IMG/VR virus record: IMGVR_UViG_3300038321_000202
Span: 1-38,611 of that record
DNA from: a virus
Taxonomy: Duplodnaviria > Caudoviricetes
DNA length: 38,611 bases
Direction: 5' to 3' (one strand)
The notes beneath the pieces were generated by a model that worked only from the letters and a program-made list of their open reading frames with translations, made no database searches and was not told the origin of the DNA. Position numbers and translations under genes: made by a program. Of the stretch, positions 1 to 23,482 are shown one piece after another. How positions within the stretch are numbered: the first letter of the stretch is position 1; each line of letters opens with the position of its first letter.

Positions 1-94
1 CTTCAAAATGATTTGCTCGCAACATTCATTTTATCAGAGTCCCCGGTGGTTTCCTATACCTACCTACAAATTGCAAACTTTATTGTACTCTATC
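1..94 (-). mobile_element. IS256-family insertion sequence, left end (partial)
   Basis: 68-94 (rc GATAGAGTACAATAAAGTTTGCAATTT) is an imperfect 27-bp inverted repeat of 38532-38558. It is flanked by GGGTCCGC (95-102), duplicated at 38524-38531. Inward-facing extended -10 TGATAAAAT at 28-36 (minus). Confidence 0.75.
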
Positions 95-348
95 GGGTCC
101 GCGCCCGGATGCTCTTTTTTATAGCGATCCTGATAGTATTTATCCAGGTTGTTATCCTGCCAGGTTTTCAAGGCCTTTTGCGTATGCTTATCCTTTTCGC
201 TGTCCAGCCATGCAACAGCGTCCCGATCCTTCCTGACAAAATTCTGTACCCGATCCAAGGTTAACGGGTTGAAACCTGCCACAAATTTTTGAACATCTTC
301 CTGATCCTTGTTTTTTGCCAGAAAATCCTGTACTTCCTGTAAAGTCAT
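95..348 (-). pseudogene. Capsid scaffold protein (DUF4355-like), N-terminal part, interrupted by IS
   Basis: ATG at 348 with GGGGG SD. MTLQEVQDFL...EHPGADP joins in frame through the duplicated 8 bp to KDSKISELE... at 38522, giving about 192 aa. Sits between minor head and major capsid genes. Confidence 0.85.
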
Positions 349-414: not shown

Positions 415-446
415 TATAAAAAAAGCGCCCGTTTCCGAGTGCCTTT
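415..446 (-). terminator. Intrinsic terminator-like hairpin
   Basis: Minus strand AAGGCACTCG-GAAA-CGGGCGCTTT (one mismatch) followed by a T run. Confidence 0.55.
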
Positions 447-476
447 ACACGCGTTTGTTTCTTTCTTTTTTTGTTT

Positions 477-508
477 ATTCCAATCTACACTCCCGCGCAA
501 GGAGCGAC
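477..508 (-). CRISPR. Solitary type I-C CRISPR-repeat-like unit (no array, no cas genes)
   Basis: Minus strand GTCGCTCCTTGCGCGGGAGTGTAGATTGGAAT: 32 nt, GTCGC start, 7-bp stem pairing positions 3-9 with 15-21, and an 11-nt tail resembling TGGATTGAAAT of I-C repeats. Confidence 0.75.
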
Positions 509-520
509 TTATCGTAGGGT

Positions 521-730
521 TTAAGGCTCTAAAGCAAGCAAATTACTTTGGGAAACCTCTATCAGCGATCCCGCCTTAAATTCGTCCTGGTCCTGCTCAA
601 CCCGGCACATATAGGATTCATAATCTTCTTCAAGCGGCTGAATGACACTGACTTTTACGAAACCAGAGGAACCCCAATTTAATTTTACTTTTATAGTTTT
701 CCCGATGCTTTTTCTTAATGCCTTAATCAT
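521..730 (-). CDS. Small protein, putative immunity protein of the MuF toxin
   Basis: 69 aa, overlaps the stop of the toxin-bearing muf gene. The function is inferred from position only. Confidence 0.55.
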   Translation of the reverse strand: MIKALRKSIGKTIKVKLNWGSSGFVKVSVIQPLEEDYESYMCRVEQDQDEFKAGSLIEVSQSNLLALEP

Positions 731-1997
731 TGCCGCTCATCTCCTTTACCGGATATACATGCGTACCCGAATTTGAATATACGATCATAGCCTTATGCGT
801 AGCAATCCATCCCCCGGTTTTTTGATCCTGGTATTGACCGATAACACGGTCTGCCGTTATCACTTCTTTCGGAGGCTGCGATGGTGACTGTATCACAATA
901 CGACCGGTTCCGTGGTATTTGTCTATCAACGACTGGGCGTCAACACTTAATTTACTGCGACCATTTACATACCTTCCCGATTGCGGGTCATGCCGTGCCT
1001 GTAAATCCTTGTTGACAGACAGATTATATCCCCCTGACATAATCTTATCCCGAAAATTAGATTCCAAAGTTATTATATCACTTTTATCGGCCGGGGAAAC
1101 AATTTTTCCACTACTTTTAATACCTTTTTCTTCTGCCCATTGATCATAGCTTTTATACCCGGTATTTTTGCCGGTTTCATTGTCCCGGCGCCGCTGCGGC
1201 TGCCAATTACCGGTCGGCACGTTGATATAGACACACCGACACTCGGGATGAATCGGGATTTCCGGTTTAGCGACATCGTCAATATCAAAATATTTCCCAT
1301 CCAGCCCAGCACATACAGCGCAAGTGTTGGATTCCAGCGTCGCGCAGAACATCTGCCGCACGCATCCGGCGGATTCCCCGATGTCGTCAATAGCCGCAGA
1401 CTGGATACGAGCGTTTTCCGTATGCACCAGCCGCTGGGATTCATATGCCTGCACGTTAAACGTCTGCCGGAGTTCCTGCCCAATCTGATCGATCGTAACG
1501 CCACCGTTTAAAGCATCCAGGAAGGATCCTTTCAGCCTATCAGCGACTGCGGCTTTATTATTCCATATCCGATTGGAAAACAGCTCTCCTTTAACCGGAC
1601 TATTTACAGCGGCGTCAATGTATTCCTGTTTCAACATTCCAAACTTAATTCCGGTTTTTAACCCGGAATCCAGAACATACGCCGTTTTATAATAGGCATC
1701 CTCATAGTTATGCGCTAAAATATTGGATATAGTCCTGATCTCTGCATCACCGATACTCTTCTGCGCCGATAAAATCTGCTTATCGACGTCGGAAAGAATT
1801 GCCGCTTTCTGCGCCGCGGAAACATGCAGCATCCCATCAACCGCGTGCTTCACGTACAGCAGCCCAAGATATTGATGCAGCCCGGTCAGACGGCTCTTTT
1901 GTTCACTGTAAACGATCTGCATTTGCCGATCCGCATACTTTTCACCGTCCTGCTTAATCTTCAAAATCAATTTTTGATATTCCGGATTGATTTTCAT
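723..1997 (-). CDS. Minor head protein (MuF/SPP1 gp7-like) with C-terminal Ntox50-like toxin domain
   Basis: TCAVC...PIHPECRC MuF motif. C-terminal QARH...GRSKL...LIDKYHGTG...KEVI...IVYSNSGTHVYP matches the Ntox50 pattern. Follows the portal. Confidence 0.85.
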   Translation of the reverse strand: MKINPEYQKLILKIKQDGEKYADRQMQIVYSEQKSRLTGLHQYLGLLYVKHAVDGMLHVSAAQKAAILSDVDKQILSAQKSIGDAEIRTISNILAHNYEDAYYKTAYVLDSGLKTGIKFGMLKQEYIDAAVNSPVKGELFSNRIWNNKAAVADRLKGSFLDALNGGVTIDQIGQELRQTFNVQAYESQRLVHTENARIQSAAIDDIGESAGCVRQMFCATLESNTCAVCAGLDGKYFDIDDVAKPEIPIHPECRCVYINVPTGNWQPQRRRDNETGKNTGYKSYDQWAEEKGIKSSGKIVSPADKSDIITLESNFRDKIMSGGYNLSVNKDLQARHDPQSGRYVNGRSKLSVDAQSLIDKYHGTGRIVIQSPSQPPKEVITADRVIGQYQDQKTGGWIATHKAMIVYSNSGTHVYPVKEMSGND

Positions 1998-3343: not shown

Positions 3344-5056
3344 TTAAAACAACAGCCGGCGCGGATAAAATCCAACAGCCGGCAGGACCGGCTGTATCTG
3401 CCCGATCCGGGTATCAAATTCCGCGACAATATCCGGGAAGTCGTCATGCAGGCTCTGCGCCCCCTGATAATCGGCTAGCTGTTGCAGCGCTTCCGTATCC
3501 GCCGCGTTAAAAATCAACCGCCCCATCAGGACATCGCCGGTAATCGCGTCGATTTTATCCACTTTATTCTTTTTCTGCATATCATTCTGAAAAATAAACG
3601 GGCGGCTGCATAGCTGGGGATCCCGCTGAATCCACTCTTTCAGCCGCAGCACGTCCGTGCCCATATACAAGTTTTTTTCGATATAGATATGCGTTATCTC
3701 ATCGTACCGCTTTAACAGGGCCACCGCATGAGCGATATAAGCGTCAAAATTCAGACGGCTTATTTCACCCTTCCGGACGTATTTCACGCCCGTAGGGCCG
3801 CGAGAGCCAACGAGAAACGCGGTATAGTCGTTTTCTTTTCCGGTTGAACTCGCCGGGTCAATACAAAGCATCGTCTGCTGGAAGTCGTGCGCCTCTATAA
3901 CCTTCGGTGGTTCCGTGATAATTGTAGTGAACCGCCGCATCCCGATATGATCCACGTCACACTGCATTTCCTGCTTGAAAGATACGGGATTAGAATAATA
4001 CGAAAGCGCCACGTCCAGGCAGTTAAACCATTGCGACCACTGCAGCGGATACTGCATCTCATTTTCATGGTCGTAATAATATCCGCGTGCGGTTTCCAGC
4101 CTGTCCGGATCCTTCGCATCATAAATCCGTTTCTTAAACTCCCCCCAGCGGCCGGAATCAAATAGCCGGTCCACGTCCTTTACGGGTATCGCGATCGTCA
4201 CACTGTGCGGCCAGGTAGGATCATGCAGCAGCCGGTCATAAAAATCATCCTTGTGCTGAATCGTCCCACAGGCGATCATCACGCAGGAATTCTGCTGGAC
4301 GGATTTCATCACGTCGTCCTGGAAGCGTTTCCACTTCTTATCCCGTTGTTCCGGCGTTGCCACGTCGTCGTCTTTCTGATAATCGTCCAAAATAACCAAT
4401 TCGGGGCGAACGTTCGCAAAATTCTTGCCGCGGAAAACCGACGCAGACGAAATGCTTTGAATCCGTACGGAATTCGCGAGATCGATAATCTCGTTATTAC
4501 AGGTATAATGCTGCGGATCATACAGTTTTCCAAATGCCTTTTCAATCCGGGCGTTTTCTTTCAGAGCGAGCTTAATATTATTGACGAAGGCGTCCGCCGT
4601 GTCCCCTACGGCGCTGCACAGGATAATATACCGCTTTTGCCCATACACAGCGGCCCAAATCGCGGACGACTGCGAAATAAAAGTGGTCTTGCCCCACCCG
4701 CGGTATTTAATATACAGCATCCGGCCCGGCTTTCCACTGCTGATAAGACTTTGGAGTTGCATCCAGGCGGTTTTATGGTCCGCGGAGATTTCCGCTTTCC
4801 CCGGCCCGATAAAAACATTCTGCAAAAAATACAAATTAAAAAATTCCAGGTCCAACCGGCCCAGGCTCCACGCCAATCCGTGATACCCGAACAGGTTCTT
4901 GCTGTTCTGGGTAATCATGTGCTCCGCGGCGGCCGCGGCGTCTTCCGGGGATGCCCCGTTTAGCCGGCAGCCGCGCAGCAAATACTTGTACAGCAAATAG
5001 CTGTTGAATTCATCGTCGCTGTCAAAGTCGATCCCGTCATACCGCACAAGCATCAC
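3344..5056 (-). CDS. terL: Terminase large subunit
   Basis: Walker A RGWGKTT, Walker B VILDD, GT coupling motif, C-terminal nuclease IDPA...HDDFPD. Confidence 0.92.
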   Translation of the reverse strand: MMLVRYDGIDFDSDDEFNSYLLYKYLLRGCRLNGASPEDAAAAAEHMITQNSKNLFGYHGLAWSLGRLDLEFFNLYFLQNVFIGPGKAEISADHKTAWMQLQSLISSGKPGRMLYIKYRGWGKTTFISQSSAIWAAVYGQKRYIILCSAVGDTADAFVNNIKLALKENARIEKAFGKLYDPQHYTCNNEIIDLANSVRIQSISSASVFRGKNFANVRPELVILDDYQKDDDVATPEQRDKKWKRFQDDVMKSVQQNSCVMIACGTIQHKDDFYDRLLHDPTWPHSVTIAIPVKDVDRLFDSGRWGEFKKRIYDAKDPDRLETARGYYYDHENEMQYPLQWSQWFNCLDVALSYYSNPVSFKQEMQCDVDHIGMRRFTTIITEPPKVIEAHDFQQTMLCIDPASSTGKENDYTAFLVGSRGPTGVKYVRKGEISRLNFDAYIAHAVALLKRYDEITHIYIEKNLYMGTDVLRLKEWIQRDPQLCSRPFIFQNDMQKKNKVDKIDAITGDVLMGRLIFNAADTEALQQLADYQGAQSLHDDFPDIVAEFDTRIGQIQPVLPAVGFYPRRLLF

Positions 5057-8599: not shown

Positions 8600-8896
8600 A
8601 TTGTGCTACGCGTACATGCGTGTAACACGTCATTACTAAAATCCTAAGAGTACTACAAATATAGATTTAAAGGATATAGAATCCTCTTTATTATCTTTAA
8701 TCCTATGTCTGTACCTACATAGGGGATTATTGGTTTACTTAGTTTACCTATATTAAAAACGGCTTATTTATGGGCTTTTTCGGTAAACTAATTTGGTAAA
8801 CCAATTAAATTTATTAGTTTACCTGGTTTACTTTAACAGCTTTAGGTAAACCAACTGGGTAAACCAATAAAAGCCTTTTAGTTTACTTGGTTTACC
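8600..8896. repeat. Putative replication origin with ten GTAAAC-core repeats
   Basis: AT-rich non-coding region directly after the primase-helicase gene; five repeat pairs of alternating orientation at 8731-8896. Confidence 0.75.
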
Positions 8897-11329
8897 CTAT
8901 TTCCCGATATATTTCCAGCCCTTTTGCGTTCCATAACCCGCTCCGAACTTCATAGTACTGGAACGTTTCCACCCCGGCATCTTATCCAGAATCTTTGAAA
9001 CACGGTTGCTTTCCGACCGTTTAACGGTCCATCCCGGACGCCAGCCCAGGCATTCACGACCGATTTCCAGCACGCAAATACGGTCCCGGTGTACCAGGTT
9101 ATCGTCCTTCTCCTGTCCCGCTTCCTGCGAGGCGAGAAATGTTTCGCGGGCGACGGAATCCATCTGCATCCAGTTTCGCGGCACGGGACGGTCCAGGAAC
9201 GCGGCGATCTGTCCTTCGTAGTCGTCCCGTTCCGTGTGGCCCTGCCGGCGTTCCTCGGCTTCCGCCTCTTCTTCCGCGGTAAGGACCAGCGGCTCGCCCA
9301 TCTGCCAGTACAGGTAGGCTTCCGCCCACAACTGCCCCACGGTTTCCGGAGTCATATCATCCCATACGTTTTTTGCCGGGCGGTCCCCGCAGTCGATAGG
9401 CCAGAAGCGGCGGTTGCCGGTCGGGTCTTTTAAGTAGTCGTTGTCGTTTGTGGTACCGAAAAAGACGCATTGGCGCGGGTGTTTTTCGGGTCTGTGGGCA
9501 TAGGCCGTCCGATATTCATCACAGGATTGTGATACCATTTGCTTAACGGTATTGGTATCCGCCCGGCTCATTGAGGACAGTTCCGGGATTTCGACGATCC
9601 AACTGCCCTGGATTACTTCCGCGACGGCTTTCGGGTCGTCGAAGGATACCATAAGCGCGGATGCCCATGGACCGCCCAGGCGGGCGGCGAACGTGCTTTT
9701 ATAGGTGCCCTGCGGGCCGCAGATAACGACCATTTCGTCGTATTTAATCCCGGGCTGCATTGCCCGCGCTACGGCGGCAGCAAGGCTCTTGCGCCCCACA
9801 GCGCGGACGTATGGGGTATCGGCTTCCCCAAAGTAATCCTGGTACAGCGTATCCAGCCGCCGCACGCCGTCCCATTGCAGTCCTTGCAGGTATTCCTGTA
9901 CCGGGTTATAAGCGTTTTCGGTCGCGGTCTGGACCAGGGCGTCGTTTATGGTGTCTGCGTTATGGAACCCGAGCAGCTGTTCTACGCAGTTGCGCAGGCC
10001 GGCGTCGTCCGTGTCGGTCCATTCAAAGGTCCCTGTCCCGTCTTTGCGGCCCGCCCATGGCAGAGGGCAAACCCCTTCAATGCGGGAACTGAATGTGTTG
10101 AGCCGGATTTTATTTTTCAGCAGAGGGCTGTGGTCCAGCATGACTGCTGCGTTATAGATCGTATGTTCGTACCTGCCGTTGTTGGGGGATACTTTCAGCG
10201 CACGCATCCACTGCGTGTCCGGTTTTTCCTCGCCATTCGCCGCCATCATTTCACTGACATCCGCAGTCGCCTGCTTATACCGTTCGGCATTAAGGATGTC
10301 GACGACCTGGGCGTCGTGGCCGGCAAAATTGCACATGGCCGTATAGGACGGCATTTTCCCGATCGGTGTTCCGGGCTTCGCGTTGTCGTCCTGATCTCCA
10401 AACAGATGGATCCGGCACAGGTCGAAGGCGTTGCACAGTTTACCGGATGCGGGGTCGGTAGCGTGGTGGGAATACAAGAATTTCCCTTCATATACGATAG
10501 CGCCGCCGGTTGTGCTGCCCGCCGCATAGGTGTAACGGTTTGGCTTGTCTGTGGGCGTGTAGACGCCGGGCAGGACATTATCGATTGTATCGTAAATGCT
10601 GTGTACTTTGCACCAGGCGCCCACGATGCCGGTCTTTTCTTCCGGGTCCTGCTGCCGTTTGGCCAGGCGGTTATAGGTATCCTGTGCACCGGGTACCTGC
10701 GGCCATGTGCCCCAGTCGTGCCAATCTTCGTACATGCCCAGAATGCCGTCTGCCGACAGCAGCGGCAAATCCGCACAACGGAATATGTATTCGCTCCCGG
10801 CACAGCAGGACGGCCAGTACATGAGCCGCGAGGCTTCAAACGTCGTCGGATCGTAGATTTTCATGCTGGGGTCAATGATAGACGCCACACGGCGTGCTAT
10901 GGGTTCGTATTCGTCCGGGGTCACGCTGTGGTCCAGCGGCAGCAGAATCCGCAGTCGGGGCGCGTCTGGGCGATGCTTGCGGGTGCTGTAGACGGCATAT
11001 CCGCATTGCAGCCCTGCCACGCGGCGCAGGATATCATCCGTTCCGCCGGGTGGGATATTATCGGCGTCCAAGGTTACGCCGTCCCGATACAGGACGGTAT
11101 TCGCCTTTCTGCGGCCGTCCTTTAATTCTCCGAAGATATAGCCGCCGATGTCTTTTAAGTCGTCCTGCCTTGCTTTCGGCAGCCGTAGATAGGCTTCCAT
11201 GCTTTCGGTGCTGCGCGCCGGGATTTTCAACTTCTCGTATAAATCGGCCACGAGCAGTTTTTGTGCCGGCCAGGATGCCGCCCGGCGGGTTCCTGCGGCC
11301 GCTATCGTAATCAATCTGTCGTATTGCAT
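8897..11329 (-). CDS. Primase-helicase (primase-like N-terminus plus VirE/VapE SF3-type ATPase)
   Basis: LDAD and YSTRKH...PRLR primase-like motifs; GPQGTYKST Walker A; WIVEIPEL; GTTN...DPTGNRRFWP. Confidence 0.9.
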   Translation of the reverse strand: MQYDRLITIAAAGTRRAASWPAQKLLVADLYEKLKIPARSTESMEAYLRLPKARQDDLKDIGGYIFGELKDGRRKANTVLYRDGVTLDADNIPPGGTDDILRRVAGLQCGYAVYSTRKHRPDAPRLRILLPLDHSVTPDEYEPIARRVASIIDPSMKIYDPTTFEASRLMYWPSCCAGSEYIFRCADLPLLSADGILGMYEDWHDWGTWPQVPGAQDTYNRLAKRQQDPEEKTGIVGAWCKVHSIYDTIDNVLPGVYTPTDKPNRYTYAAGSTTGGAIVYEGKFLYSHHATDPASGKLCNAFDLCRIHLFGDQDDNAKPGTPIGKMPSYTAMCNFAGHDAQVVDILNAERYKQATADVSEMMAANGEEKPDTQWMRALKVSPNNGRYEHTIYNAAVMLDHSPLLKNKIRLNTFSSRIEGVCPLPWAGRKDGTGTFEWTDTDDAGLRNCVEQLLGFHNADTINDALVQTATENAYNPVQEYLQGLQWDGVRRLDTLYQDYFGEADTPYVRAVGRKSLAAAVARAMQPGIKYDEMVVICGPQGTYKSTFAARLGGPWASALMVSFDDPKAVAEVIQGSWIVEIPELSSMSRADTNTVKQMVSQSCDEYRTAYAHRPEKHPRQCVFFGTTNDNDYLKDPTGNRRFWPIDCGDRPAKNVWDDMTPETVGQLWAEAYLYWQMGEPLVLTAEEEAEAEERRQGHTERDDYEGQIAAFLDRPVPRNWMQMDSVARETFLASQEAGQEKDDNLVHRDRICVLEIGRECLGWRPGWTVKRSESNRVSKILDKMPGWKRSSTMKFGAGYGTQKGWKYIGK

Positions 11330-17746: not shown

Positions 17747-18466
17747 CTATGCCCCGGCTATTAAAAGTCGAAAGGTTTCACGGCCTTTGGGCGTGACAAG
17801 GGTTTGTGTTCCGCGCCAATTTGTCTTTTCGTTGTAGGTTTCTTTTACTTCAAATAAATCAGTTTGCTTGTCCGCGTACGGCTTCAAGTTTCCCTTTTTA
17901 TCCCGGTAGAGATATTTTCTGCCGAGTAAAAAAGATACGAACGCTTTTGGCCCAATATGAAGCTCTTTCGCAGTGTCGCGGAAATTCGTCAGCAGATTGC
18001 GGTCAACCAGTTCATCAAAATATTCGGCTTTCGGCTGCATAATCTGCTTGTCCACAGCTAAGGCAGAGTTTGTAGTTTTGAGCTTTTTGTTCTCGCCTTT
18101 CAGCGATGCTAACTCTGCATTGGCCACTTTCAATGCCCGCGCCATGATCTGCTCGGGGCTGTTCCAGCTGTTTTCCACGGAGATAAAATACTGCCGCGCC
18201 TGTTTGCCGCGTTCGGTGCGTTGAATCATACAAAGCTCTTTCGCCATGTCGATGGTAAGCTGATAATCGGTGGATGGCCTGCCGCCCTTTGGGTTATAGT
18301 CATTTTCAGCTAAAACCTCATAATCGGCGCTTTGGGCAAAGCCATATCCTTTCATACGGTCAAACCAATGGGAAAATTGCTCGCCAACTTCCAGAAACCC
18401 GTGAAGTTCTCTTGCCGATACTGTCGGCTTGTCCGAATCATAATTGATAGGAATTAAAGCGTTCAT
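17747..18466 (-). CDS. Antirepressor (AntA/AntB N-terminus plus KilAC C-terminus)
   Basis: VSARELH..L...F..WF.RM, MAKELCMIQR..GKQARQYF; PKAEYFD...QTLVTPKGR. Confidence 0.9.
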   Translation of the reverse strand: MNALIPINYDSDKPTVSARELHGFLEVGEQFSHWFDRMKGYGFAQSADYEVLAENDYNPKGGRPSTDYQLTIDMAKELCMIQRTERGKQARQYFISVENSWNSPEQIMARALKVANAELASLKGENKKLKTTNSALAVDKQIMQPKAEYFDELVDRNLLTNFRDTAKELHIGPKAFVSFLLGRKYLYRDKKGNLKPYADKQTDLFEVKETYNEKTNWRGTQTLVTPKGRETFRLLIAGA

Positions 18467-18510
18467 TTTGTACCTTCTTTCTGCCGCTTTTAGTAAAATC
18501 ATGGGCGCAG

Positions 18511-18666
18511 TTAGCAAGGATGAATAGTCTTTTCTAATTCAACCAGGGATGAAACGACACTTGGAAGCACTGTAACTGCTTCGGATGCCGCTTTGTCGTT
18601 TTCAGCTGTCCGAATAATGAAATCAATCATGGCTCGCTCGATTGCGCTTTTCTGTGCGGAATTCAT
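18511..18666 (-). CDS. Small hypothetical protein (51 aa), not in the ORF track
   Basis: MNSAQKSAIERAMIDFIIR...; AGGTGA SD. Confidence 0.55.
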   Translation of the reverse strand: MNSAQKSAIERAMIDFIIRTAENDKAASEAVTVLPSVVSSLVELEKTIHPC

Positions 18667-18794
18667 GTTGCTCACCTGCCTTTCTTGTAACTTTACTGCC
18701 CCTTTTATGGCACAGATGCTTTCAATGGTATTGAATTTTTTCTGTGGGGTGATATGCTGAACTTATCCAGCTTGTTTCTGGCGGATAAGCTCTC

Positions 18795-19637
18795 CTACTG
18801 ATAGACGACCACATAGTGTTTTCCACCCAAAGAAATAGGAGTCGGGCTATGATGCTCGGAGAGCCAGCTTCTCACCATATCCAGTACTGGGGCCCTGAAG
18901 CGGTCGTAGTCGTCGGAATGGCCGTTCGCGGCAAATGGCGAATGTTCAATCAGTCCTGTCGGAACATTCAGTGTGTGGATGATGGCGGCGATGGCCTGTG
19001 AATGGGGTTTACCGGCTTTGGAATAGACGCCGAGTGCTTTCGCGATCTGTTCCTTGTCGTAGGTCTTTTCACACTCAGCCGGTACGCCGGGAATGTCGAT
19101 TCCAAGTTCGCCATAGACCCGTTTGTAGATTCCGGATACGGCGGCAGCGGCGCGCTTTTTATCAACCCCGGCTGCTTCCCATGCTCGCCGTAAAATTTCC
19201 ATGGAGTGATTTACTGATGGCAGGGCACGGTATTTTGATTTTCCGGAAGGCTCTTTATGATGCAGGAATGCATTGGCAAGAACTTTCTGTGCTTTCAACT
19301 GATACTGGATAAGCTTGTTTGTAACTTCTGGATGCTCTTTCTTCATCGTTGGGGTGATACTGATTTTGGCAAGCCAAAGAGGAATGAAGTCGTTGTCGAT
19401 AGCGATAGCTTCATTGTTCTGGTCGAATACCCCTGCCTCAAATTTGAGGCACCCGCGTTTAAGGACCTCGTCCTTCTGGATATTCGCCACCTGCCGGTCT
19501 TTTTCATGCTTTGAAAACCCGATTCCTTTGCAGATGTAAGAAACACCTGCATAGATTTTTCCGGTTTTATCGTCGCGGGCTGCCATGAGCTCATCTCCCA
19601 TGAAAGGAACCGTTTTGATCGATAACTGAGTGTTCAT
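18795..19637 (-). CDS. Antirepressor with P22 Ant N-terminal-like domain
   Basis: VPFMGDEL...IYAGVSYIC.GIG...IPLWLAKI...LIQYQLKA..VLA.AF. Confidence 0.85.
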   Translation of the reverse strand: MNTQLSIKTVPFMGDELMAARDDKTGKIYAGVSYICKGIGFSKHEKDRQVANIQKDEVLKRGCLKFEAGVFDQNNEAIAIDNDFIPLWLAKISITPTMKKEHPEVTNKLIQYQLKAQKVLANAFLHHKEPSGKSKYRALPSVNHSMEILRRAWEAAGVDKKRAAAAVSGIYKRVYGELGIDIPGVPAECEKTYDKEQIAKALGVYSKAGKPHSQAIAAIIHTLNVPTGLIEHSPFAANGHSDDYDRFRAPVLDMVRSWLSEHHSPTPISLGGKHYVVVYQ

Positions 19638-23430: not shown

Positions 23431-23482
23431 TGGTCCGAGTGACAAGACTTGAACTTGCGGCCTCTTGACCCCCAGTCAAGCG
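23431..23482 (-). tRNA. 3' fragment of tRNA-Pro(GGG), the att core (not a full tRNA)
   Basis: Anticodon arm CTTGA-CTGGGGG-TCAAG, T arm with GTTCAAG, ends CACTCGGACCA; no 5' acceptor strand or D arm. Confidence 0.88.

Follow-up and report, generated by a model that had tools for sequence, protein, structure and literature searches.

A solitary type I-C-like CRISPR repeat before a terminator-like hairpin in a temperate tailed phage, and its possible role as an RNA decoy

Overview of the element

A single type I-C CRISPR repeat is found on the minus strand of a temperate tailed phage, between a toxin-bearing head gene with its small neighbour and the head scaffold gene, and is followed by an A-rich tract of about spacer length and a terminator-like hairpin. 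The element is a real feature with a putative function that is possibly fading. Our preferred reading, to which we give a probability of about 0.42, is that the repeat yields an RNA decoy of the Racr type that ties up Cascade proteins of the host; the anatomy is observed, and each step of the mechanism is one that we infer. Published examples of this layout (repeat, spacer-like tract, terminator) exist both in phages and in type I-C loci.

In minus-strand order, the region comprises the MuF-Ntox50 gene (1997-723), a 69-aa ORF (730-521), 12 nt, the repeat (508-477), 34 nt, a G-C stem with a GAAA loop (442-425), U7 (424-418), 70 nt and the scaffold start at 348. The features are listed below.

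723..1997, minus strand: MuF minor head protein with a fused Ntox50 toxin domain (PF04233, PF15542)
521..730, minus strand: 69-aa ORF, likely immunity protein of the MuF toxin tip; overlaps the MuF stop and ends 12 nt before the repeat
477..508, minus strand: solitary type I-C CRISPR repeat of 32 nt, assigned by sequence, fold and comparison with array repeats
477..487, minus strand: predicted 5' handle of 11 nt; positions 23 and 29 of the repeat read A and G, against G and A in arrays
443..476, minus strand: A-rich, spacer-like tract; 34 nt lie between the repeat and the G-C stem, of which 30 nt (476-447) are unpaired in the fold
418..446, minus strand: terminator-like hairpin (446-421) with GAAA loop (435-432), one A-C mismatch and U7 (424-418); the stem ends 76 nt before the scaffold start
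92..348, minus strand: head scaffold gene, 5' part, lying after the terminator and broken by an insertion-sequence end in this assembly

The phage and its likely host

The window, meaning the whole stretch of DNA analysed, is the entire virus record of 38,611 bases, with a G+C content of 50%. Profile and ORF annotation gives the gene set of a temperate tailed phage, namely terminase, SPP1-type portal, MuF, scaffold, capsid, tail, lysin, integrase and repressor. Both contig ends (1-91 and 38532-38611) are ends of an insertion-sequence-like element with a 28-nt inverted repeat, which splits the scaffold gene with a target duplication of ~10-11 nt. In L029, another assembly of this phage (99.9% identity), the scaffold gene is intact (192 aa) and the repeat-bearing element is unchanged. 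The sequencing runs that contain the phage are mostly fermentation metagenomes, and no RNA run was found among them.

The attP core lies at 23431-23482, between integrase and lysin, and is identical to the 3' part of a tRNA-Pro gene, whose identity was read directly from the sequence. This core is found exactly in 4/401 Oscillospirales genomes and in four further relatives of one of these; the matches spread across several Oscillospirales lineages and thus do not pin the host. Searches by the attP core, integrase, lysin and tail DNA returned distant prophages only, at 64-77% DNA identity. The host probably belongs to the Oscillospirales, the sole order searched. By Pfam, Cas5d is present in 100/401 genomes of one family of this order, and it occurs in 6/10 genomes of a second Oscillospirales group. 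Among 964 and 227 spacers, none matches the phage convincingly, the best matches being partial and 17-20 nt long.

Two other regions of the window are repetitive. Short direct repeats of 32 nt at 63-nt spacing adjoin a primase-like gene at 8730-8910 and are possibly a replication origin. At 17747-19637 are two antirepressor genes, each preceded by a common 27-nt repeat (at 18458 and 19629; 93% alike).

The repeat and its predicted handle

The repeat is full length (32 nt, no indels). Compared by eye, it differs at 4/32 positions from the array repeat of an Intestinibacillus (L030), its nearest array repeat, and all four differences are transitions. Several other array repeats adjoining cas5d-cas8c-cas7 are 5-7 differences away, and similar repeats occur in arrays beside cas5d-cas8c-cas7-cas4-cas1-cas2 (these gene names were read from translations; Cas5d was confirmed by Pfam for other loci). 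The match is above chance: with a probe offset by one base, the real window has 5 mismatches, and 100 shuffled windows never have fewer than 10. The repeat is also single, as every other site in the window has at least 14 mismatches, and no Cas family was found among the 45 ORFs scanned of 209 listed.

The repeat folds into a 7-bp stem with two G-U pairs, a 5-nt loop and an 11-nt 3' tail. Among 18 consensus repeats of 32 nt, the stem changes T9 and T20 occur in 2 and 4, respectively. The cut site G21/U22 is kept, as it is in all 18. Cas5c is reported to cut after nucleotide 21, leaving an 11-nt handle (PMC8524198), and by analogy a Cas5d cut is predicted between 488 and 487. An earlier note on this DNA had likened the expected RNA to a mature I-C crRNA, and the type I-C repeat with its intact stem and retained G21/U22 supports that comparison.

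The predicted handle is less typical. A23 occurs in 1 and G29 in 0 of 1411 array copies, both are absent from the 18 consensus repeats, and 13/13 lone repeats of host loci keep the array letters at positions 23 and 29. Recognition by Cas5c of B. halodurans is reported to centre on U22-G23-G24, and that of S. mutans to have tolerated G23U (PMC8524198). On sequence grounds, the two handle changes appear to be the main sign of decay, although the repeat of the phage's own host could share a change.

The A-rich tract and the hairpin

The tract is the sole site in the 38.6 kb, on both strands, with at least 17 A in 23 nt. It has 19, a value reached in 0/200 shuffled windows. Among 964 real spacers, none has 19 A in 23 nt, and three have 19 A in 30 nt. 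The length of the tract is near that of spacers (mode 34, n=964), and its first 18 nt hold 15 A and no T. As an alternative, the tract was considered as the U-tail of a plus-strand terminator; this is not favoured, given that the plus strand folds poorly (z 0.34) and that 7 nt lie between tract and hairpin.

The hairpin has a folding energy of -11.2 kcal/mol, and by itself it stands out from its shuffles (z -4.64; 0/200 equally good). The complete 73-mer is not unusually stable (z -1.28; 18/200 shuffles). The minus-strand hairpin is absent from the output of a terminator scan. A related contig matches the hairpin only and was not counted as evidence.

A hairpin at this place is an ordinary feature of related phages. 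Relatives were taken as the best 80 of 539 MuF-related viral loci and one prophage locus (L145), of which 70/81 have a scaffold relative; after removing duplicates and leaders without a recognisable start, 52 distinct scaffold leaders were compared. The related head modules are distant (35-60% protein identity); closer MuF relatives (P0026-P0030, 55-75%) are on record as proteins only. A hairpin with a U tail is found in 41/52 leaders, ending 63-133 nt before the scaffold start (76 in the phage), against 3/260 shuffles, and that of L085 is nearly identical to the phage hairpin. The 34 nt before these stems are A-rich in the relatives as well (median 16 A, maximum 22; the phage has 22). By the best 23 nt, the phage has 19 A against at most 17 in the 41 relatives, many of which look A+T-richer overall. 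A repeat between MuF and scaffold was found in 0/81 related MuF loci, and none was found at this position in 16 related portal loci.

This comparison suggests that the hairpin was probably there first and that the repeat landed in front of an existing terminator. Because the hairpin is common to relatives without the repeat, its presence can be understood without CRISPR. The spacer-like distance may be accidental, or selection may have acted on it once the repeat was in place. The crRNA-like shape is therefore weaker evidence than it looks, and genome scans call for the same caution, since the "spacer-length tract and hairpin" of a lone repeat can derive from an older terminator.

The succession of repeat, A-rich tract and GAAA hairpin with U tail that the earlier note had described is borne out, its 31-33 nt for the tract agreeing well with the 30-34 nt found here, and nowhere is the genome richer in A than in what it called a low-complexity guide (19 A in 23 nt). 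It had also proposed a crRNA-like RNA of ~70 nt. The intact stem, G21/U22 and published type I-C units of this layout agree with such an RNA, whereas the ancestral hairpin and the two handle changes weaken the case for it. Its size is also in doubt, because known type I-C RNAs of this layout end in the 3' hairpin loop, which here would give ~54-56 nt.

The upstream toxin gene and its small neighbour

The 69-aa ORF is likely, from its sequence relationships, to encode an immunity protein of the MuF toxin rather than an anti-CRISPR protein. It matches no Pfam, PHROG or PADLOC family, and it has four protein matches, of which only one is a full-length relative (58% identity). The closest MuF toxin tip is 70% identical, and five others are 37-41% identical. 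The small-ORF relative and the MuF with this closest toxin tip each have a single recorded contig, of 44,275 bases in both cases, and are inferred to be neighbours, which suggests that the ORF accompanies the toxin tip in the manner of an immunity gene. An Acr function was considered for the ORF and set aside as less likely. Atlas structure look-alikes of the protein are all below thresholds, and a small beta-barrel is a lead only. The small ORF linked to MuF/Ntox50 is a candidate for an immunity family without a Pfam entry.

Such an arrangement is known. Small ORFs are reported to follow 89.4% of muf toxin genes (PMC5576092). As in the polymorphic toxin and immunity cassettes described there (Jamet et al. 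2017), muf lies directly after the portal gene, has a C-terminal Ntox50 and is followed by a small ORF. The phage differs in having a CRISPR repeat behind the immunity gene, of which the part of the published account considered here makes no mention. Among titles and opening lines of abstracts, none was seen that joins a lone repeat to a MuF immunity gene; those searches were not aimed at the pairing, and no claim of absence is made.

Two consequences follow for the repeat. If its neighbour is an immunity gene and not an acr gene, linkage to acr drops out as support for a decoy, and no acr or aca linkage, which viral Racr-type repeats often but not always show, was found at this locus. In addition, a lysogen should need the immunity protein, which suggests a route by which the repeat might be expressed.

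Candidate promoters

Two promoter-like sites lie upstream of the repeat.

776..805, minus strand: sigma-70-like site (9/12), 46 nt before the 69-aa ORF; the window has 5 such sites against 4.0 expected in shuffles
511..516, minus strand: weak -10-like hexamer (4/6), 2 nt before the repeat, with no well-spaced -35

The first is a candidate, not above chance, for the promoter of a transcript with the immunity gene and the repeat. The second is not convincing as a promoter, judged by its sequence. A contig of a related strain reads 5/6 at this hexamer (position 514), at a depth of 2.3, so the difference may be an error. A clear -10 box is present at most host lone repeats and at an element of another phage (L144), which is described below.

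Searches for homologues

No Rfam family matched the element, and the one match elsewhere in the window is at chance level. Pattern searches of IMG/VR found no exact copy of the repeat and no match to the tract or hairpin patterns (0 loci each), and 21 nt of the tract are absent from that collection, although records closest to the window may be missing from the collections searched; handle plus tract start was found once, in an unrelated phage (L001). With handle and seed, 0 lone repeats were found in GTDB representatives, and the five metagenome matches are the second assembly of the same phage (L029) and four ordinary array spacers. Blastn searches of phage and plasmid sets gave weak partial matches only (E 0.3 or worse). 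Five of 301 Oscillospirales genomes have weak partial matches, and the four loci inspected are arrays or terminators. A viral mini-CRISPR array was considered and rejected, as such an array needs at least two repeats with a spacer matching another element and the phage has a single repeat.

Searches for targets and the regulatory guides of host loci

If the tract serves as a guide, a target next to a PAM might be expected in host loci. The search covered 100 of 106 Cas5d places in the 401 genomes and three added loci, giving 103 type I-C loci (1.16 Mb), and six later loci bring the number to 109. Some of these loci have units resembling the phage element. In 13/103 loci, a lone repeat-like hairpin with a handle is followed by ~20-49 nt rich in A+T and by a terminator; ten of these units are antisense and lie 2.2-2.6 kb into the cas3-cas5 region, two are just before cas3, and one (L234) is doubtful. 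For nine of the 13 guides, a PAM-flanked match occurs in their own locus, and eight of these matches are 15-20 nt long and perfect except at every sixth position; the targets of six of these eight are 106-156 nt away. Thus, the scan detects real targets, and the layout is an ordinary one for type I-C regulation. The host targets are locus-specific, as none of the 13 guides has a match of 15 nt in the 102 other loci.

CreR-like units were observed in Oscillospirales type I-C loci L248, L257, L262, L265, L268, L271, L274, L279, L282, L291, L295, L297, L328, L329 and L330. They are mostly antisense between cas3 and cas5, and many have PAM-flanked self-targets 100-160 nt away.

For the phage tract, the longest TTC-flanked run in the 103 loci is 9 nt, and with a relaxed PAM it is 10 nt; two TTC-flanked matches that were inspected are both inside coding sequence. 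Against 69 cas3 and 94 cas5 upstream regions, the tract agrees at no more than 12/15 positions, and the six further loci offer runs of at most 9 nt. Within the phage itself, the longest TTC-flanked run is 7 nt. A search of five genomes with PAM and 16-nt seed gave one match, which precedes a hairpin and has a mismatch in the seed. The seed is shared with none of 13 and three further lone-repeat guides of hosts. In their first 18 nt, the host guides have 2-8 A and 5-12 T (A+T 10-16), and the phage tract has 15 A+T.

A comparison of the tract with cas promoters next to a TTC PAM, as the earlier note had proposed, thus yields at most 9 nt in 109 loci. As targets are locus-specific, a missing target is expected without the genome of the phage's own host, and the scan does not decide whether the tract is a guide.

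Relation to known RNAs

RacrIC1 is reported to lie 11 nt behind acrIC5 and to inhibit type I-C on its own, and 2,103 solitary repeat units (SRUs) were reported on viral sequences (PMC10651486). The phage element resembles RacrIC1 and these viral SRUs (Camara-Wilpert et al. 2023) in being a single type I-C repeat, intergenic, in a temperate phage, on the same strand as a small gene and 11-12 nt behind it. Compared by repeat and position, it differs from RacrIC1 in that the upstream gene is likely a MuF immunity gene and not acrIC5, in its two handle changes, and in its activity, which is putative. The letters of the phage repeat do not occur in nine supplementary files of that study. As far as its sequence goes, the element can be counted as a viral SRU, being an intergenic repeat match with no second repeat nearby and no cas gene among the ORFs scanned.

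Cracr RNAs, such as CracrVA1 (Liu et al., bioRxiv 10.1101/2024.10.29.618823), share with the phage element a single repeat-like sequence, a spacer-like tract and a rho-independent terminator, and type I-C candidates are reported. As defined in the part of that report used here, they share 9 or more PAM-proximal nucleotides with the spacer of a host CreR/CreA and have a target in a promoter, neither of which was found for the phage in the loci searched. Within host genomes, type I-C SRUs before cas5c reportedly give crRNA-like RNAs of 48-50 nt that end in the 3' hairpin loop (Shu et al., bioRxiv 10.1101/2024.12.27.630466). These SRU RNAs and CreR (bioRxiv 10.1101/2023.03.10.532045) are like the phage element in having a Cas5c cut, which is predicted here, an 11-nt handle, a spacer-like tract and a 3' hairpin that is not a repeat. 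They are host-encoded RNAs of 48-50 nt with a promoter target flanked by TTC or TTA and a conserved last 7 nt; by contrast, the element described here belongs to a phage and is longer, departs from those 7 nt at one position and has no known target. The layout of repeat, tract and 3' hairpin is thus published in type I-C regulation (bioRxiv 2024.12.27.630466; bioRxiv 2023.03.10.532045; PMC10120712). Either of two roles had been suggested beforehand, a non-targeting Cascade or a regulatory guide of the CreA/CreR kind. Both are published kinds of RNA (Racr and Cracr), but no PAM-flanked target was found.

Interpretations

If the element is a Racr-type decoy, the repeat would be transcribed with the immunity gene or with the late operon, and Cas5d would cut at 488/487, after G21. 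The 3' end would fall at the terminator (~70 nt) or in the hairpin loop (~54-56 nt), a pre-existing terminator probably having been co-opted as the 3' hairpin. The handle-bearing RNA might then load Cas5, Cas8 and Cas7 on the unstructured tract and guide them to no target, and its competition with true crRNAs would lead to a loss of immunity. Consistent with this are a repeat only 4/32 from a real array repeat, with stem and G21/U22 kept; a position like that of RacrIC1, intergenic, on the coding strand and 12 nt behind a small gene; the frequency of type I-C in the likely host order; and a tract that is unpaired and of spacer length. The 15 A and 0 T of the tract, unlike 13 host guides, suit a non-targeting filler, and a spacer-mutated Cracr is reported to still compete for the effector in type V-A (bioRxiv 2024.10.29.618823). 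Arguing against a decoy are the handle changes A23 and G29 (1 and 0 of 1411 array copies, and 0/13 host lone repeats), the want of a convincing promoter of its own, a neighbour that is likely an immunity gene and not acr, and the count of 0/81 MuF loci with the repeat, which gives no sign of conservation. Expression from the late operon only would, moreover, come late for protection.

The same handle changes suggest that the repeat might instead be a relic, which we consider somewhat unlikely. In such a case, a repeat, either with some spacer sequence or as what had once been a decoy or regulatory unit, would have recombined into a variable toxin-immunity cassette and would now be drifting, poorly cut or loaded, with the hairpin serving the head operon only. 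All four differences being transitions, two of them at nearly invariant handle positions, fits this account, as do the lack of a good promoter and the absence of homologues from the 81 MuF loci, IMG/VR, GTDB representatives and the phage and plasmid sets; a hairpin with A-rich DNA before it is also normal here (median 16 A, maximum 22, the value of the phage). Yet the stem pairs fully, the cut site is intact, and no indel has altered the 32-nt length of the repeat. The tract is also A-richer than those of 41 relatives by the 23-nt measure, in a genome of 50% G+C, and the host's repeat might share a change. It is unlikely, and more so than a relic, that the RNA acts as a guide of the Cracr/CreR type, loading Cascade and, through partial pairing by a TTC PAM, repressing either the promoter of cas5 or cas3 in the host or a defence gene under CRISPR supervision. 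The layout is that of CracrVA1 (single repeat, spacer-like tract, terminator) and of type I-C SRUs, as far as these are described in the sources cited above, and it recurs in 13/103 type I-C loci, 9/13 with a PAM-flanked match in their own locus. Host guides are A+T-rich too (10-16 of 18, against 15 in the phage), and with locus-specific host targets (0/102) a missing phage target is expected without the host. However, the best runs are 9 nt (TTC) and 10 nt (relaxed PAM) in 103 loci and at most 9 nt in six more, lone repeats with this seed are absent from GTDB representatives, the metagenome matches are the phage itself and four array spacers, and the strand composition is unlike that of all 13 host guides. 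Very unlikely is a processing site, at which Cas5d cleavage, or the two hairpins alone, would separate the MuF-immunity message from the scaffold-capsid message and tune their levels, with no anti-CRISPR role. The repeat does lie on the coding strand at the joint of two parts of the head operon, where hairpins are conserved, but relatives do without the repeat, and head assembly is unlikely to depend on a patchy host enzyme (100/401 genomes).

If active as a decoy, the element would add a type I-C RNA anti-CRISPR from a phage of anaerobic fermentation. It could also test whether decoys of type I-C assemble a whole Cascade that lacks a target or, like RacrIF1, an aberrant filament, a matter that we did not find settled in the parts of the literature considered. 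A complete targetless Cascade is conceivable in type I-C, where the handle is bound by Cas5 and no Cas6 is needed. A specific form of the decoy, which we hold to be quite improbable, is a "null-guide" anti-CRISPR RNA, in which the repeat sits one spacer length before the phage's own terminator with a purposely targetless, unstructured A tract in the gap, and lysogens would make full-size targetless Cascade along with the MuF immunity mRNA. If true, this would combine toxin immunity and CRISPR suppression in one transcript, and a whole-complex decoy would have arisen by terminator co-option.

Other lone repeats

Lone type I-C repeats were also seen elsewhere. In a related phage (L144, 2147-2055, minus strand), an insert between portal and MuF has small ORFs, one of them ribbon-helix-helix-like by eye, followed by a near-consensus promoter, a trimmed type I-C repeat with an intact handle, ~33 nt and a strong terminator. 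No target for this element was found in the 103 loci. On sequence, it is a better Racr/Cracr candidate than the element of the window. In another phage (L001, 1650-1700), a shortened lone type I-C repeat lies behind a -10-like box, directly before a gene start.

In three related bacteria (L152, L153 and L154, near 4020-4050; G793, G794 and G791), a lone full-length type I-C-like repeat lies ~20 nt before the start of the yidC-like gene in the rnpA-yidD-yidC operon, whose gene names were read from translations. It is possible that this repeat is a Cas5d site in a housekeeping mRNA. Lone repeats ahead of yidC in two bacteria carry A23 as well.
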